DNA of 14,665 nt from Nanobdellota archaeon (lineage in GTDB: Archaea; Nanobdellota; Nanobdellia; Woesearchaeales; JBHPGL01): positions 1-14,665 of the forward strand of contig JBHPGL010000031.1 in the NCBI GenBank assembly GCA_042570655.1. Direction: 5' to 3'. The notes below the pieces were generated by a model. That model did not search any database. It had not been told where the DNA came from and saw only the letters and a program-made list of their open reading frames with translations. The position numbers were made by a program, and so were the translations under genes. Position 1 is the first letter of the stretch. Each line of letters starts with the position of its first letter. Below are positions 4,302 to 9,722 of this stretch, piece by piece.

Positions 4302-4886
4302 TTATGGCGTTTGGCCAAACTTACAATGTTTACAAGTAGCGTCAATAGGTATCCAATTATTATTTCTGTAACCATTAATGTATATCTTATTATAGATGTG
4401 GTTTGGACTGAATTCAAATTGATTGTCAATTCCAACTGCTCCTAAAAGGTTTGCTAGTAGAACTGCATGACCATCACAATCTGCTGTTCCTGAACTAAGG
4501 GTTTCTTCAGGTGTTTCAATATATTCAAAGTTTGGATCTTTTACATATTGAACATTTTTTTGGACAAATAGAAACATTGCTTTTGCATAACAAATATTAT
4601 TATATGATGAACATGAAAGTTTTGCAATTTTGTTTGCTATAAGTTTTATTTGTGGATCTGATGGGTAGTAGAATTTTGTCCATCCTAGTTCGTCAAGATT
4701 GTGTGAAATGTTTTTTAGTTGTAGGTCTTGTATTACTTCTTCTATTGTAGGTGTATAAGAAGGGTATGGATCATATTTGATGAAGTATACTAGATAGAAT
4801 CCAGTGATTATTATTAAGATTAGGATTAGTGCCATAATTATTTTAAGTGGTTGTGCTTTGTTTTCTTCGTAATCTAGTTCTTCCAT
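4302..4886 (-). CDS. Membrane-anchored transglutaminase-like (TGc) cysteine protease-fold protein of 194 aa.
   Basis: An N-terminal transmembrane helix (KIIMALILILIIITGFYLVYFI) is followed by the TGc signature GTADCDGHAVLLANLLGAVGI with a candidate catalytic Cys137. A downstream His (SPNHIYNKIYI, His163) and Asp (WIPIDAT, Asp182) have spacing typical of the Cys-His-Asp triad. Confidence 0.7.
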   Translation of the reverse strand: MEELDYEENKAQPLKIIMALILILIIITGFYLVYFIKYDPYPSYTPTIEEVIQDLQLKNISHNLDELGWTKFYYPSDPQIKLIANKIAKLSCSSYNNICYAKAMFLFVQKNVQYVKDPNFEYIETPEETLSSGTADCDGHAVLLANLLGAVGIDNQFEFSPNHIYNKIYINGYRNNNWIPIDATCKHCKFGQTP

Positions 4887-4944
4887 GTTAAGTTAGAAAT
4901 TGTTTTTGTATTTAATTGTTATGGTATGAATAAAATACTTTTTT

Positions 4945-7900
4945 TCATTTACAAGATTCTTCTTGACCTGAGATAGCTAAAAAGTTTTCTCCTAAAAAAT
5001 CATCGAAATTATAAATTCTATATCCAACTGTTGCATAACCATTAGAATAACCTTCTATAGCATCTATGGAAATTGTCTTTCCTACAGCTCCTACATAGGC
5101 ACCAAGATTATTTAATAATCCTTTACTTTTTTCTATTACATTACTATTTTCATCAATAATAACAACATTAAGATACATATTATCTCCTTCAATTGAAGTA
5201 CCGCTTATAATAAAGTTTCCATCAGATCTTTTTACTCCATTTAAATCTGCTTTAAAATCGAGGTTGATTTCTTTATGTGAAATTTCATTTAGATTTGAAT
5301 CATATCTTACAATTCCAATTTGTTCTGTACGGGCCCAGCTGGTTGGATCTGTATCTCCCCAATTATATAGTACTAAATAATTACTACCTTCTTTATATAT
5401 GGAATGAGGATATAATCTTGATCCAGTACCATAAATATCTATAAATTGGGATGAGACTTTTGCACCAGTATTTTTATTAATTTTCGTTATGTAACCTTTG
5501 AAATTACTATAAGAATCATATCTAGATGCAATCCCCAACATAATTAAATTTTCATTATCTTCTATTAAATCAATAAAACTAGGAATGTCTAAACCAGGTC
5601 CTGGATTAAAATCATGTTGCATATATTCTGACCAAATAACAGTACCACTTGAATCTGTTTTAAACATAATACTACCTAAATTACCACCTCTATCTTGTGA
5701 CCAAAGAACATAACCACCATCGCTCATTTGTTTAACTTGACAATAATGTCCAATTGGCCAATATTGTCCATTAACAACATTATAATATAATAATTCTTCA
5801 CTCCAATCAATATCTCCATTAGAATTTAGTTTTACAAGGAAACAAGTACCCTCAGCAGGAGCATCAAATATGTAATTATTATCATGATTTGTTGTAATAG
5901 TTGTACCCATAATATATCCGCCATCTGTAGTTCTTGAAATTGAATATGCACGATTATTTAACGTTCCATAAGGATCGGATTTACTGAAATCATTTTCATC
6001 ATATCTTTTCTCCCAAATCTTTTCACCATTTTCATTTGTTTTAACTACGTATATATCATTATAATGTAATCTTTTTGCATTATAATCTGGTAAATATGAT
6101 GCATCCAATTCTGCTTGAGTCAGTATTTTTTCAGTAAAACCAACCATTATATATCCATTATCGTGAGATTTGTCAATACTAAATAATGTTCCACCTGTGT
6201 ATATTGGATCATCAGGATGCAGTGAAATTATTTCTAAATCTTTTGAACATGTTTGTCCACTAGGACAATTTTGTGGTGTATTCCATTCAAGACAAGGATC
6301 AGTATCATGATAACCACAAGTTTTAATTTGATCACCTGCACATTCAATTTTTCCACTTAGACTACATTCATCAGTACACGAAATTATACATTGATCATTA
6401 TCACAACTATATCCTGTTGAACATCCAGGTCCGCAAGTACTTTCACAACCATCATTACCGCATTGTTTACCTGCGCAATCAGGAGTACAAGGTGGTTCTA
6501 CACAAGAATTTAATCTTAAATTATTTATGTTGCTTCGCATTTCATTCATTTGTGATGCATAAATATAGGAGTTTGGAGTTGGTGTTGAACTAGTCCAAGA
6601 ATTTGAAACTGATCCTCCCCTAGAATTAATTGTTGTTTCTAAATTTTCAATTGCATTCCATAATTGTGAGAAATCAGATGATTCAATTATTATATTTCTA
6701 ATGTTATTTGGATTTGTTTCACAATTGGTTAATGGTTGGTTAAGGTTTGATTCAAGTTCTCTAACACAAGTACAAAGTTCTGTAATATGTTCTGCTTTGA
6801 TTAAGGTTTGATCTTTTTGAACAGGATCATCTGTCCAAGGAGGACATTCTGTCATTGCAGAACAACAATCTTCATCTTGATCATCTACTAGACCATCACA
6901 ATCATTATCAGTTCCATCTGAACAATCTGTTTCAAGATTACAAAAAGTATCTGAATTTAAATCACAAGGATTATATTTAGCTGTGCTTCTAGTTGCACCA
7001 CATCCATCTGTATAGTCGCAAGCATTTCTATATGCAGGTGTACAACATGCACCAAATGTTTCACATCCATTACTCCAATCATTATCACAATTATTATAAT
7101 CCGGTGGACATCCACAATCTTCTGGACATGTTAACGGAGTTTCATCATATCCACATTCACCATCACCGCAAATACTTATTATTCCTCCACAAATACCATG
7201 GCCATCACATAGATCATTTAATGTATTTGGATTTCCATCATCACAAGGTGTTCCTGCCGTTACATAACATGGATAACTATTTATACTCAATGTACCTATA
7301 CAAGAATTTGGATTTGGAGTACATATTGGTGGAACCATATTTGGATTTACATTTTCTGGGAACCAAACATCTGCTAATCCTGCAACATCTGTTTTATATG
7401 TTGCAGCTTGAACTTGTTCATTATAAGGTCTTTCTAAGCCACCCGGTCCGCACCAAATATCTATATATTCATGTTGGGTCCAACCATAATCCCATTTCCC
7501 AGGATAATAATTAATCTCATTAAATCCTGAATTAAGGATCCAACCTGACCAACCTGTTCTTGCTCTAATAATTCTACTTCCTGAAGGGAAATCAACTCCT
7601 GCAGGAAGTGAAGGAAGTGAAGTGTCTTGACCTACACCTATTATTTTATCTACTTCTTGATATGTTATTCCATTTGTTTTTTCACCACAAAATGCGTTTC
7701 CATTTATTTGAGTTATATAACCACTTCTATCATGACCATTTAACCTATAATTGTTTAAAACCCAACCTGCCCAAATAACACCCCATGGGTTAGATCTTAC
7801 CATATATCCACCTATTAAAGCTGTAGGTGCATAAACATGATTAATAAAAGTGCAATCTGGTGCACATTCTCCTTCCAACCATCCTTGTTCAATTGTTGTG

Positions 7901-8349
7901 TAAGGACCATCATCACAAGCTTCTCCTGAATCAACAATACTATTACCACAAGTTCCTGGAAGAGTTATGGGTAGGCAACTTCCATCTTGTTGTACAATGA
8001 AATTCTCATTAACATTCCAACTCCAACCACTGGTTGATGCTTGTAAACCAATTGGATTACCTTTATTTGTGATTGTAGTAACACAATATTTATAATTAGT
8101 TGAACCTTCAGGAATAGGTAGACATTTATTAGCGTTTAAACATATTGCACCTGGATTTGATGATACATAAAATAATGCTTCATTTCCTGTATCTTTATTT
8201 TTAATAGTAACATGATCTTCTGAATTATAGCATTTCATATTTACTTTATCCTTATCTTCCAAACTTACTTCCCAACATAATGCGTTTACTGAATAAATTA
8301 ATAAAATTACAATAATTAATAAAGAAAATTTATTCTTCAATAATTTCAC
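4945..8349 (-). CDS. Giant secreted mosaic protein of 1134 aa. It has a signal peptide, Cys-rich modules (a Myxococcus-type CGNxxxDxGExCDDG repeat, a CGDGECG...CPEDC module and DxDCDG acidic motifs), a Trp/Gly-rich central domain and a C-terminal beta-propeller-like region of about 430 aa with recurring D-G-G-Y-[IV] signatures.
   Basis: The N terminus MKLLKNKFSLLIIVILLIYSVNALC is a classic signal peptide. TCGNSIVDSGEACDDGP and PCDDGNPNTLNDLCDG resemble the Myxococcus cysteine-rich repeat. ICGDGECGYDETPLTCPEDC matches the module repeated in the protein at 13390-14665. Residues 340-500 and 615-705 are extremely Cys-rich. DNGYIMVGFT, DGGYIMGTTI, DGGYVLWSQD and SNGYATVGY recur at about 70-80 aa spacing after residue 705. 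Confidence 0.85.
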   Translation of the reverse strand: MKLLKNKFSLLIIVILLIYSVNALCWEVSLEDKDKVNMKCYNSEDHVTIKNKDTGNEALFYVSSNPGAICLNANKCLPIPEGSTNYKYCVTTITNKGNPIGLQASTSGWSWNVNENFIVQQDGSCLPITLPGTCGNSIVDSGEACDDGPYTTIEQGWLEGECAPDCTFINHVYAPTALIGGYMVRSNPWGVIWAGWVLNNYRLNGHDRSGYITQINGNAFCGEKTNGITYQEVDKIIGVGQDTSLPSLPAGVDFPSGSRIIRARTGWSGWILNSGFNEINYYPGKWDYGWTQHEYIDIWCGPGGLERPYNEQVQAATYKTDVAGLADVWFPENVNPNMVPPICTPNPNSCIGTLSINSYPCYVTAGTPCDDGNPNTLNDLCDGHGICGGIISICGDGECGYDETPLTCPEDCGCPPDYNNCDNDWSNGCETFGACCTPAYRNACDYTDGCGATRSTAKYNPCDLNSDTFCNLETDCSDGTDNDCDGLVDDQDEDCCSAMTECPPWTDDPVQKDQTLIKAEHITELCTCVRELESNLNQPLTNCETNPNNIRNIIIESSDFSQLWNAIENLETTINSRGGSVSNSWTSSTPTPNSYIYASQMNEMRSNINNLRLNSCVEPPCTPDCAGKQCGNDGCESTCGPGCSTGYSCDNDQCIISCTDECSLSGKIECAGDQIKTCGYHDTDPCLEWNTPQNCPSGQTCSKDLEIISLHPDDPIYTGGTLFSIDKSHDNGYIMVGFTEKILTQAELDASYLPDYNAKRLHYNDIYVVKTNENGEKIWEKRYDENDFSKSDPYGTLNNRAYSISRTTDGGYIMGTTITTNHDNNYIFDAPAEGTCFLVKLNSNGDIDWSEELLYYNVVNGQYWPIGHYCQVKQMSDGGYVLWSQDRGGNLGSIMFKTDSSGTVIWSEYMQHDFNPGPGLDIPSFIDLIEDNENLIMLGIASRYDSYSNFKGYITKINKNTGAKVSSQFIDIYGTGSRLYPHSIYKEGSNYLVLYNWGDTDPTSWARTEQIGIVRYDSNLNEISHKEINLDFKADLNGVKRSDGNFIISGTSIEGDNMYLNVVIIDENSNVIEKSKGLLNNLGAYVGAVGKTISIDAIEGYSNGYATVGYRIYNFDDFLGENFLAISGQEESCK

Positions 8350-9596: not shown

Positions 9597-9685
9597 TCAC
9601 CCTCTTTTACAAAAAGTATTAATTCTCAATATTTAAATGTTTGGGTTTGTCAAGGTTGAGTTACAAATTATAATAGAAAAATTTA

Positions 9686-9714
9686 AATAATACTTAGTAT
9701 TACTTAGTATTATT
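9686..9714. promoter_or_regulatory. Candidate operator. A tandem direct repeat TACTTAGTAT x2 (9691-9710) sits inside an extended imperfect palindrome AATAATACT...AGTATTATT, just downstream of a TATA-like TTTAAATA (9682-9689) and 9-13 nt upstream of the RHH gene start.
   Basis: The repeat is read directly from the sequence, and each unit is itself nearly palindromic. It lies in the divergent intergenic region between the RHH regulator gene (+) and the surface-protein cluster (-). RHH proteins classically bind repeated or palindromic operators in their own promoters. Confidence 0.3.
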
Positions 9715-9722
9715 GGTGAAAA

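Follow-up and report, generated by a model that had tools for sequence, protein, structure and literature searches.

Four consecutive, co-oriented genes encoding surface-type proteins, lying beside a divergent RHH gene in the genome of a tiny symbiotic archaeon, raise the question of whether they form one dedicated system under RHH control or have merely come to be neighbors. The window, by which we mean the whole stretch of DNA analyzed, is an entire contig of 14,665 nt from a Nanoarchaeota (DPANN) MAG, archaeal and complete, with 29% GC. An initial annotation of this DNA had proposed a dedicated four-gene surface system for attachment. We consider it likely that the stretch is instead a composite of three independent pieces and no single system, in which probable lineage-specific orphan surface genes sit between a conserved TGc gene and a self-regulating RHH repressor.

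Layout of the locus

The four minus-strand ORFs are all present as first described (Table 1), with gaps of 79, -20 and 58 nt between them, and the RHH gene is indeed divergent from them across an intergenic region of 126 nt. Export and topology were called from hydrophobicity and cleavage-site rules; each of the four proteins has one N-terminal hydrophobic segment, in agreement with the proposal that the products are exported or membrane-anchored, and cleavage-type sites (VSA/VNA) occur in the 307-aa and giant proteins. Elsewhere on the contig, a strong homolog of the major vault protein lies at 1787-3532.

Table 1. Genes and candidate signals of the locus (window positions)
Feature	Position	Strand	Remarks
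T5 run	4287-4291	-	11 nt after TGc stop codon; candidate archaeal terminator
TGc gene	4302-4886	-	194 aa
TATA-like box ATTAAATA	4909-4916	-	22 nt upstream of TGc ATG; candidate independent leaderless-type promoter
Giant gene	4945-8349	-	1134 aa
Small membrane-protein gene	8330-8593	-	87 aa
307-aa ("beta-helix") gene	8673-9596	-	307 aa; TTG start
TATA box TTTAAATA	9630-9637	-	33 nt upstream of 307-aa TTG start; candidate promoter of the three-gene unit
TATA box TTTAAATA	9682-9689	+	belongs to RHH gene
Tandem 9-bp palindromes TACTTAGTA x2	9691-9709	.	between RHH TATA box and start codon; candidate RHH operator
RHH gene	9723-9983	+	86 aa
AMMECR1	10000-10554	-	Pfam; conserved backbone gene, precedes TGc in related genomes
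RpoL	10551-10838	-	Pfam; conserved backbone gene, precedes TGc in related genomes

Three orphan genes in the middle

The 307-aa protein matches only itself among 5.8 billion proteins. Its hexapeptide-like repeats, with a periodicity of 6/12/18 residues and a short predicted helix, lend slight weight to the beta-helix first read from it, but the matches to left-handed beta-helix (hexapeptide-repeat) and tail-fiber proteins are non-significant (E at least 0.06) and the AF2 model is unusable (pLDDT 42). The tail-fiber-like tip that had been ascribed to it was not borne out: the C-terminal 82 aa are without a PDB match, the tail-fiber PHROG scores E = 0.091 and IMG/VR returned nothing.

The same observations bear on the idea that the three genes are the remnant of a virus or mobile element, for instance a receptor-binding fiber module, beside a toxin-antitoxin-like RHH/PIN cassette. 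They are orphans, make up an indel when compared with the closest relative, adjoin a cassette type that is common in variable islands and show a weak tail-fiber likeness (PDB 9cuy, E = 0.064, besides the PHROG match). We nonetheless regard such an origin as very unlikely, given that the IMG/VR scans were empty for both the 307-aa and the giant protein, that blastn against 50,697 phage records gave no match, and that the sole tblastn match (E = 4e-3) is a putative acyltransferase of the hexapeptide-repeat type from a phage early region, not a tail protein. Flanking direct or inverted repeats were looked for and none found, there is no integrase among the window ORFs (all otherwise assigned, or short and unannotated), and the codon usage of the three genes is native, being indistinguishable from that of the backbone (RSCU r = 0.947, as compared to 0.956 for a backbone-versus-backbone control).

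The small protein is predicted to span the membrane once, has an acidic tail and is 84 aa long if read from the deposited ATG at 8584. The 3' end of its gene overlaps the start of the giant gene, by the 20 nt originally reported if ORF starts are used but by 11 nt with the deposited NCBI starts; the giant protein accordingly has 1134 aa from a GTG at 8349 or 1131 aa from the deposited TTG at 8340. Translational coupling of the two genes would fit this arrangement.

From its N terminus the giant protein consists of a signal peptide, an orphan N-terminal region, Cys-rich modules, three helical repeats, a further Cys-rich module (aa 612-705), propeller-type repeats (aa 720-930) and an orphan C-terminal region. 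The earlier description of a secreted Cys-rich protein holds as regards the cleavage-type site and the 58 Cys, but homology does not reach beyond the module level: a word-index search for a full-length homolog gave one match over 8% of the length, and an exhaustive HMMER search gave 1356 matches, all on the modules at aa 612-705, 720-930 and 340-500, the best 150 of which leave aa 1-330, 505-610 and 930-1134 (about half of the protein) uncovered. The beta-propeller likewise stands only in part, with repeat-level matches to proteins carrying DUF5122 or PQQ_2 but no Pfam domain found in the giant itself. We therefore describe it as a mosaic, predicted to be exported, in which disulfide-rich modules are combined with propeller-type repeats and only shuffled modules resemble other proteins. 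A second Cys-rich anchored ORF, running from 13390 to the contig end, contains the same short modules and carries PF11617.

Between 4150 and 9750, the minus strand has no exact consensus box other than that at 9630-9637; the 307-aa gene has GAGGGTGA ahead of its TTG start. The gaps are free of oligo-T terminators, as had been stated, to the extent that they contain no T run of 5 or more; T5 and T6 runs do, however, occur within the final 55 nt of the giant ORF, whose stop codon is followed by TTTTATT. The 307-aa, small and giant genes plausibly make up one transcription unit of surface proteins, and a single mRNA would probably start from the TATA box at 9630-9637. This unit would encode, besides the 1134-aa exported mosaic, a repeat protein exported by Sec and a tiny acidic-tailed membrane anchor, all of which we infer to be fast-evolving surface or attachment proteins of a DPANN episymbiont.

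One might alternatively picture the unit as an envelope lattice of the S-layer type, with the giant as lattice subunit and the small and/or 307-aa protein as anchor or stalk. SlaA/SlaB of Sulfolobales offer a loose parallel of subunit and anchor, and S-layer proteins are typically lineage-specific orphans; here, too, a large exported protein that lacks a C-terminal anchor lies beside small membrane-anchored partners, is translationally coupled to one of them and belongs to a unit whose TATA box fits the consensus and whose SD sequence is strong. This remains quite unlikely in our judgment: the closest relative does without these genes, which one would not expect of an essential envelope component, known S-layer families show no similarity to the proteins, and the presence of another such Cys-rich ORF on the contig points to a secretome family with several members and not to a single lattice protein.

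The TGc gene and its neighborhoods elsewhere

The 194-aa protein matches Pfam PF01841 Transglut_core with 35.9 bits (cutoff 23), and an alignment of five TGc homologs confirms that the Cys-His-Asp triad is intact (C137, H163 and D182, all invariant) and reveals four more invariant Cys. Its AF2 model (pLDDT 72) matches the TGc-type proteases 3isr, TglA, CPR-C4 and LapG in Foldseek. With TGc present in 79 genome loci, the gene is a conserved backbone gene of Woese-/Pace-/Nanoarchaeota. Its product appears to be a conserved ecto-enzyme that is anchored in the membrane and has the transglutaminase/cysteine-protease fold, the domain presumably facing outside since basic residues precede the TM helix and Cys pairs are conserved.

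The gene probably has its own promoter. The spacing of ATTAAATA resembles that at the leaderless-type promoters of two further genes in the window (239 aa and 106 aa), where TTTAAATA lies 21 and 23 nt upstream, and the orthologue in the closest relative has TTAAATATA 20 nt upstream. The promoter is a candidate only, because one-mismatch TATA-like boxes are frequent in sequence of 29% GC (17 on the minus strand in 5.6 kb); read-through from the giant gene is possible given the co-orientation and the 58-nt gap.

The closest relative (L001/L002, one organism in two samples, and the sole close relative showing the RHH-TGc junction) is identical to the window at 84% for aRF1, 70% for AMMECR1, 74% for RHH and 64% for TGc. 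Its gene order is AMMECR1-PIN-RHH(divergent)-TGc, with an 87-nt spacer between RHH and TGc, so that RHH is kept directly divergent from TGc without the 307-aa, small and giant genes. About 50 nt beside the RHH gene, operator and TATA box included, are conserved between the two genomes, and similarity stops beyond. The orphan unit would thus be an indel in a variable chromosomal slot, either a gain here or a loss in the relative.

More broadly, tblastn with all window proteins found the three genes in none of 86 TGc loci; the 307-aa and small proteins have no homologs in these or in 80 RHH loci, and the giant has a single 33-aa module match across both sets, although orphan, fast-evolving genes could go unnoticed by homology search at the more distant loci. 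TGc and RHH each occur elsewhere without the three orphan genes. By tblastn, RpoL lies near TGc in 27 of the 86 loci and AMMECR1 in 23, nearly always upstream and co-oriented; across 79 further genomes TGc comes after RpoL-AMMECR1(-UppS), the AMMECR1-TGc gap ranging from ~70 nt to 4.3 kb with UppS as its usual occupant. The adjacency of TGc to the giant gene is best read as incidental, because its conserved partners in other genomes are RpoL and AMMECR1, frequently joined by a cis-prenyltransferase.

These neighborhoods weigh on the proposal of one four-gene attachment system, in which TGc would process the giant by LapG-like release or cross-linking and RHH would control the operon. Co-oriented genes, short gaps without a T5 run and an intact triad are what it would predict, and TGc does match LapG, which frees a giant adhesin by proteolysis (sequence profile, E = 9e-4; Foldseek, E = 4e-3); moreover, at one distant locus (L069) a Cys-rich secreted ORF of 566 aa lies 96 nt upstream of TGc. 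We still hold the proposal to be unlikely. Synteny is absent in the 86 TGc loci, the closest relative keeps RHH and TGc without the three genes, TGc has a TATA-like box of its own, and the BTLCP/LapG Pfam family is missing from its Pfam matches. Lack of synteny and a promoter between the genes had both been named in the initial annotation as grounds for rejection. Large secreted neighbors (ORFs of 500 aa or more whose N terminus carries a hydrophobic segment) show no enrichment around TGc, at ~0.3 per locus against a background of 0.27-0.38 per 12.6 kb. Candidate RHH operators, finally, lie in the RHH promoter alone.

The RHH gene and its operator

The 86-aa protein matches Pfam RHH_1 (21.0 bits; cutoff 20.5) and has 174 metagenome relatives, and sequence similarity places it in a DPANN RHH family that is widespread and occurs in 80 unrelated contexts. 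No TACWWWGTA sites occur in the window other than the palindromes at 9691-9709, which lie in the gene's own promoter and not near any cluster promoter; this speaks against the suggested control of the cluster by RHH. Among 69 distinct RHH upstream regions, 67 have a TATA-like box and 61 have at least two TACWWWGTA sites, as compared to 0.6% of random 60-mers; within the family, the sites are usually spaced by 11 nt, and 5 nt usually separate the end of the last one from the ATG. Because tandem palindromes lie between the gene's own TATA box and ATG in these 61 regions, RHH is a candidate autorepressor. Boxes of Sulfolobus aCcr1 were reported to block pre-initiation-complex assembly (PMC9976878), and RHH bound to its two 9-bp palindromes might act likewise. 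A convergent PIN gene adjoins RHH in 68 of 74 RHH loci and is absent from the window; the RHH piece would thus be a self-contained autorepressed cassette whose convergent PIN partner was lost here.

Orphan surface genes in a variable slot are ordinary for DPANN. In Nanoarchaeota, it is the predicted surface proteins that diversify fastest (PMC6142677).

Comparison with known systems

The TGc protein has its triad and modeled fold in common with TGc-type proteases (the putative Cytophaga protease 3isr, S. pyogenes TglA, CPR-C4 and Legionella/Pseudomonas LapG), but differs in being anchored to the membrane at its N terminus and in having four additional invariant Cys. With CPR-C4 it shares small size, conservation, the TGc fold and an origin in a lineage of ultra-small symbionts. 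Unlike LapG, it falls outside the BTLCP/LapG Pfam family and lacks a LapD/LapA-type partner, its conserved neighbors being RpoL, AMMECR1 and UppS and not an adhesin.

The RHH protein resembles the aCcr1/CdrS-type repressors (PMC9976878) in being a small RHH protein, yet it is not a member of aCcr1_fam (NCBIfam), where it stays below threshold (E = 1.4e-6, 28 bits versus a cutoff of 60). It differs from aCcr1 in having the boxes within its own promoter, in a basic tail at the C terminus and in its pairing with PIN in relatives, and no cell-division target is evident. It is also reminiscent of VapB(RHH)/VapC(PIN) in adjoining a PIN-domain protein of ~138 aa in those 68 related loci and in its apparently autoregulated promoter, whereas RHH and PIN are convergent there (tail to tail, with a gap of -13 to 52 nt) and not co-transcribed, and the PIN gene is wholly lost in the window.

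While the overall architecture of the giant is common to no protein found, its modules at aa 612-705, 720-930, 363-414 and 428-495 recur in large mosaic extracellular proteins of the Cys-rich/propeller kind from DPANN, CPR, Myxococcota and other groups, with the MopE-type motif PF11617, Dicty_CTDC-like repeats and DUF5122/PQQ-type propeller repeats.

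Synteny of the cluster and its closest relative

The window has a composite architecture, in which the transglutaminase-like membrane protein gene (TGc) and the divergent ribbon-helix-helix gene (RHH) are independent of the three orphan genes that lie between them (the giant, small and 307-aa genes). The initial annotation read TGc and these three genes as one dedicated surface system, and it is this reading that a survey of synteny did not bear out. A set of 5.8 billion proteins contains four homologues of TGc. The closest (64% identical) is encoded on a pair of JGI contigs, L001 and L002, whose aRF1, AMMECR1 and RHH are 84%, 70% and 74% identical to those of the window. 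The gene order there is AMMECR1, PIN, RHH (on the opposite strand), TGc, three unrelated genes and aRF1. Only 87 nt separate RHH from TGc, which diverge from each other with no gene between them, and the 307-aa, small and giant genes are absent. The window and L001 can be aligned for ~50 nt beside RHH, over ATACTAAGTAATAC(T/A)TAGTATTATTTAAAT plus ~12 nt, beyond which the similarity ends. The junction is defined by this single close relative, and the indel may be either a gain in the window or a loss in L001. The three-gene indel is bordered neither by repeats nor by target-site duplications.

When GTDB species representatives were scanned with the TGc alignment, another 79 loci emerged, all of them in Woese-, Pace- or Nanoarchaeota, and every window protein was compared with the 86 TGc loci by tblastn. 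RpoL was found in 27 and AMMECR1 in 23 of the 86, upstream of TGc and on the same strand in nearly all of these loci, while RHH was confined to L001 and L002 and the giant, 307-aa and small proteins matched in none. Nor do large secreted-type ORFs (500 aa or more, beginning with a hydrophobic segment) cluster around TGc: 20 lie within 6 kb of it in 67 loci, no more than in unrelated DPANN DNA, where the background is 0.27-0.38 per 12.6 kb. TGc is therefore a conserved backbone gene, and only on this contig does it adjoin the giant gene.

We note that the TGc family (loci L008-L086) recurs after RpoL-AMMECR1, often adjoining the cis-prenyltransferase gene UppS, divergent or co-oriented, in Woese-, Pace- and Nanoarchaeota. 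The gap between AMMECR1 and TGc ranges from ~70 nt to 4.3 kb and usually holds UppS together with assorted cytoplasmic genes; this recurrent setting might point to a function of the family in the envelope or in glycosylation. The flank of TGc toward aRF1 also differs between the two relatives, with a PNP-like phosphorylase and a major vault protein homologue in the window (4167-1787) and three unrelated ORFs of 292, 120 and 115 aa in L001 (2898-4528). Since both flanks of TGc differ, the whole interval from AMMECR1 to aRF1 is variable, with TGc as its fixed anchor.

Features of the window and their coordinates
Feature	Coordinates	Strand	Remark
aRF1	480-1580		archaeal housekeeping neighbour
MVP homologue	1787-3532	plus	581 aa
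Inverted-repeat element	4168-4301		21-nt arms at 4168-4188 and 4279-4299
TGc	4302-4886	minus	194 aa
Giant	4945-8349	minus	1134 aa
Small	8330-8593	minus	87 aa
307-aa	8673-9596	minus	307 aa
Candidate promoter of 307-aa gene	9630-9637	minus	only exact TTTAAATA on that strand, 4150-9750
RHH cassette	9682-9983		TATA box, two TACWWWGTA palindromes, ATG
Palindrome pair	9691-9709		10-nt spacing
RHH	9723-9983	plus	86 aa
AMMECR1	10000-10554		archaeal housekeeping neighbour
RpoL	10551-10838		archaeal housekeeping neighbour
RPA-like OB-fold protein	11085-12101		archaeal housekeeping neighbour
Second Cys-rich ORF	13390-14664	plus	runs off contig end

Gene calls and predicted transcription units

The ORFs of the initial annotation were all recovered at their positions in the window, which is a complete contig of 14,665 nt with a GC content of ~29%. 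The overlap of the small and giant genes is also real, but with the deposited starts (ATG 8584 for the small gene; TTG 8340, preceded by AAGGTGA, for the giant) it shrinks from 20 to 11 nt. A single hydrophobic segment is found at the N terminus of all four minus-strand products, with signal-peptidase-type sites in the 307-aa protein (…LISLNVSA/AVPNPGH) and the giant (…LIYSVNA/LCWEV), and 21-23-residue anchors without such a site in the TGc and 87-aa proteins. Among the products of the cluster and RHH, only TGc (Transglut_core) and, barely, RHH (RHH_1) exceed a Pfam cutoff; neither Pfam nor NCBIfam assigns the giant, small or 307-aa protein to a family. The window as a whole has no Rfam or tRNA match.

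A bacterial promoter and terminator scan is irrelevant to an archaeon and performed no better than on shuffles, and an analysis of TATA boxes and oligo-T runs was used instead. The TATA consensus TTTAAATA is present in 11 copies in the window (~6 expected). Copies precede the RPA, 239-aa, 106-aa, RHH and 307-aa genes by 21-33 nt and the start of the RpoL ORF by 24 nt. The candidate promoter of the 307-aa gene lies 33 nt from its TTG, which is preceded by GAGGGTGA, and no zero-mismatch box occurs inside the cluster. T runs between the 307-aa and small genes do not exceed 3 nt, and the small gene overlaps the giant one, so the three genes plausibly form one predicted transcription unit. The end of the giant ORF carries T6 and T5 runs in its last 55 nt and TTTTATT after its stop codon, and a TATA-like box, ATTAAATA, stands 22 nt before the ATG of TGc, a distance like that at the 239-aa and 106-aa genes, whose promoters are of leaderless type. 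One-mismatch boxes are frequent in this AT-rich DNA, so the box before TGc is only a candidate promoter.

The intergenic region between the convergent PNP-like and TGc genes contains two inverted-repeat arms around a GC-richer core of ~90 nt, and on either strand its predicted folding is well below that of shuffles (z = -4.7 and -4.9). The element matches nothing in Rfam or tRNA scans, and L001 lacks it at the corresponding position. It may act as a terminator in both directions or encode an unannotated small RNA.

The RHH gene and its operator

RHH matches RHH_1 (PF01402, the CopG family) at 21.0 bits, just above the cutoff of 20.5, as well as NikR N-terminal RHH models (to E = 1.9e-8); the aCcr1 family (NF053762) was discarded, at 28 bits against an NCBIfam cutoff of 60. 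A metagenome scan yielded 174 relatives, of which 80 loci of 46-67% identity (L087-L166) were kept. TGc, AMMECR1, the 307-aa gene and the small gene are found in none of the 80, and the sole match to the giant is one 33-aa module. The upstream regions of the relatives are unrelated beyond the TATA box, and the operator within them is conserved: at least two TACWWWGTA sites, with one mismatch allowed, are present in 61 of 69 distinct RHH upstream regions, as compared to 0.6% of random 60-mers, with a start-to-start spacing of 11 nt in 50 cases. The order of TATA box, two palindromes and ATG is thus typical of a cassette widespread in DPANN archaea, to which the copies in the window and L001 belong; in the window a GGTGA ribosome-binding site arises from an insertion of 9 nt. 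We infer from this arrangement that RHH represses itself.

The initial annotation had suggested that RHH might regulate the divergent cluster. This idea was rejected, since no TACWWWGTA site occurs in the window outside the RHH promoter; downstream of the TATA box of the 307-aa gene there is only TACTTTTTGTA, the spacing of which is wrong for the operator. A convergent PIN-domain gene (~138 aa) follows RHH in 68 of the 74 loci with enough downstream sequence, at a gap of -13 to 52 nt, and is also present in L001. The window has no PIN gene or remnant, only 16 nt separating RHH from the AMMECR1 stop, and its RHH copy has lost the PIN gene. Nor is this a VapBC module: in canonical VapBC the antitoxin and PIN toxin are co-transcribed, whereas here the PIN gene is convergent in the relatives and absent from the window. 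Its family distribution, operator and pairing with PIN thus make RHH a portable self-regulated cassette that is not tied to the cluster.

The orphan proteins

The 307-aa protein is ACFL1H_03290 in NCBI (100% identical; 'Nanoarchaeota archaeon' MAG), and among 5.8 billion proteins it matched only itself. Its description as a beta-helix is in keeping with a 6/12/18-residue periodicity and sub-significant matches to hexapeptide-repeat proteins (gamma-carbonic anhydrase, E = 0.13), but it has no Pfam hexapeptide-repeat match and no confident model, the AF2 single-sequence model (pLDDT 42) being unusable and hence left out of the fold search. The tail-fibre-like tip once assigned to it found no support (PHROG, E = 0.091; PDB 9cuy, E = 0.064), and its C-terminal 82 aa have no PDB match. 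A viral origin was likewise set aside: two IMG/VR scans, phage blastn, PHROGs and phage tblastn gave nothing meaningful, the IMG/VR search with the 307-aa protein being empty and its sole phage tblastn match a putative acyltransferase.

The giant, with 58 Cys residues, gave one word-index match over 8% of its length. When 1.84 billion representatives were searched exhaustively with HMMER, 1356 matched, and the best 150 cover modules only. Among these matches, the Cys-rich unit at residues 612-705 is repeated up to 16 times in the matched proteins, including those of Myxococcota, the partners of the propeller-type repeats at 720-930 bear DUF5122 or PQQ_2, and residues 340-500 have few matches, of MopE and Dicty_CTDC type; residues 1-330, 505-610 and 930-1134 have none in the best 150. 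The earlier assignment of a beta-propeller is in keeping with these HMMER partners; Pfam finds no domain in the giant, whole or as five segments. The sole match in a PDB sequence search is a teneurin Cys-rich stretch (E = 0.0025).

Recent horizontal transfer or a chimeric assembly was rejected on codon usage: the RSCU of the three genes correlates with that of the backbone at r = 0.947 (control 0.956), with GC3 of 0.07-0.13, so the genes are resident. The Cys, Gly and Pro codons account, through their second position, for a rise in GC at 7000-8000.

Another Cys-rich ORF with an N-terminal anchor (at least 425 aa, 29 Cys) has three CG(D/N)GxC…CPxDC units like those of the giant and a MopE-type PF11617 motif above cutoff (36 bits). 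Such mosaics therefore recur in the secretome of this organism, with at least two on this contig.

A major vault protein homologue

Between aRF1 and the PNP-like gene lies a strong homologue of the eukaryotic major vault protein (MVP). Its residues 77-536 align by phmmer with residues 264-753 of rat and human MVP chains (E = 5e-69), and Pfam assigns it Vault repeats and MVP_shoulder. The gene shares its contig with archaeal aRF1 and RpoL, and its codon usage is native. According to a 2019 preprint, no MVP homologue had been found in archaea (10.1101/872010), and a 2026 paper on eukaryotic signature proteins in Asgard archaea from structure-based prediction mentions MVP.

The TGc protein

TGc belongs to the transglutaminase-like superfamily, scoring 35.9 bits with PF01841 (E = 9.6e-9), where 23 is the cutoff. 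Its triad is intact, as the initial annotation supposed, with C137, H163 and D182 invariant in a five-sequence alignment, as are four further Cys residues. An AF2 model built on this alignment (pLDDT 72, pTM 0.67) has the predicted papain-like TGc fold; the top Foldseek PDB matches are the TGc-fold proteases 3isr (E = 1.7e-4), TglA, CPR-C4 and LapG. The domain presumably faces outward. Membership of LapG/BTLCP was dismissed, the matches at E up to 0.1 being Transglut_core, DUF553 and CEP76 only. LapG-style enzymes cleave at a TAAG motif, and none is visible in the sequence of the giant.

Discussion

An indel of orphan genes specific to this lineage is enclosed by TGc and RHH, both conserved and each distributed independently of the other; the orphan genes probably encode surface or attachment proteins. 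In the Nanoarchaeota predicted surface proteins are reported to diversify fastest (PMC6142677), and since such diversification is documented the feature is an ordinary one, if uncharacterised. We note that in a compact DPANN genome co-orientation and short gaps are not evidence of a functional system. The three proteins are candidate host-contact proteins of an uncultivated episymbiont. Perhaps more generally useful are the family of conserved membrane TGc proteins with its link to RpoL-AMMECR1-UppS in DPANN archaea, the autoregulated RHH/convergent-PIN cassette with its sharply conserved operator, and the strong MVP homologue in a DPANN archaeon.

Alternatively, a new three-gene fibre, anchor and binder module might have been recruited in one lineage immediately upstream of a conserved ecto-TGc that matures it, a scenario we consider quite improbable. 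Maturation would proceed by cleavage or isopeptide cross-linking. The context of this idea, which takes up the processing of the giant by TGc suggested in the initial annotation, is the co-orientation of the genes, the gap of 58 nt between the giant and TGc, and the LapG-like fold of TGc; the comparison of loci lends it no support. LapG resembles TGc at the superfamily level only (E = 9e-4), and LapG/BTLCP systems include a LapD-type partner and a LapA-type substrate, whereas TGc is without a conserved adhesin neighbour. Were the idea nevertheless correct, the cluster would represent an archaeal LapG-like or sortase-like mechanism of surface display for host attachment.
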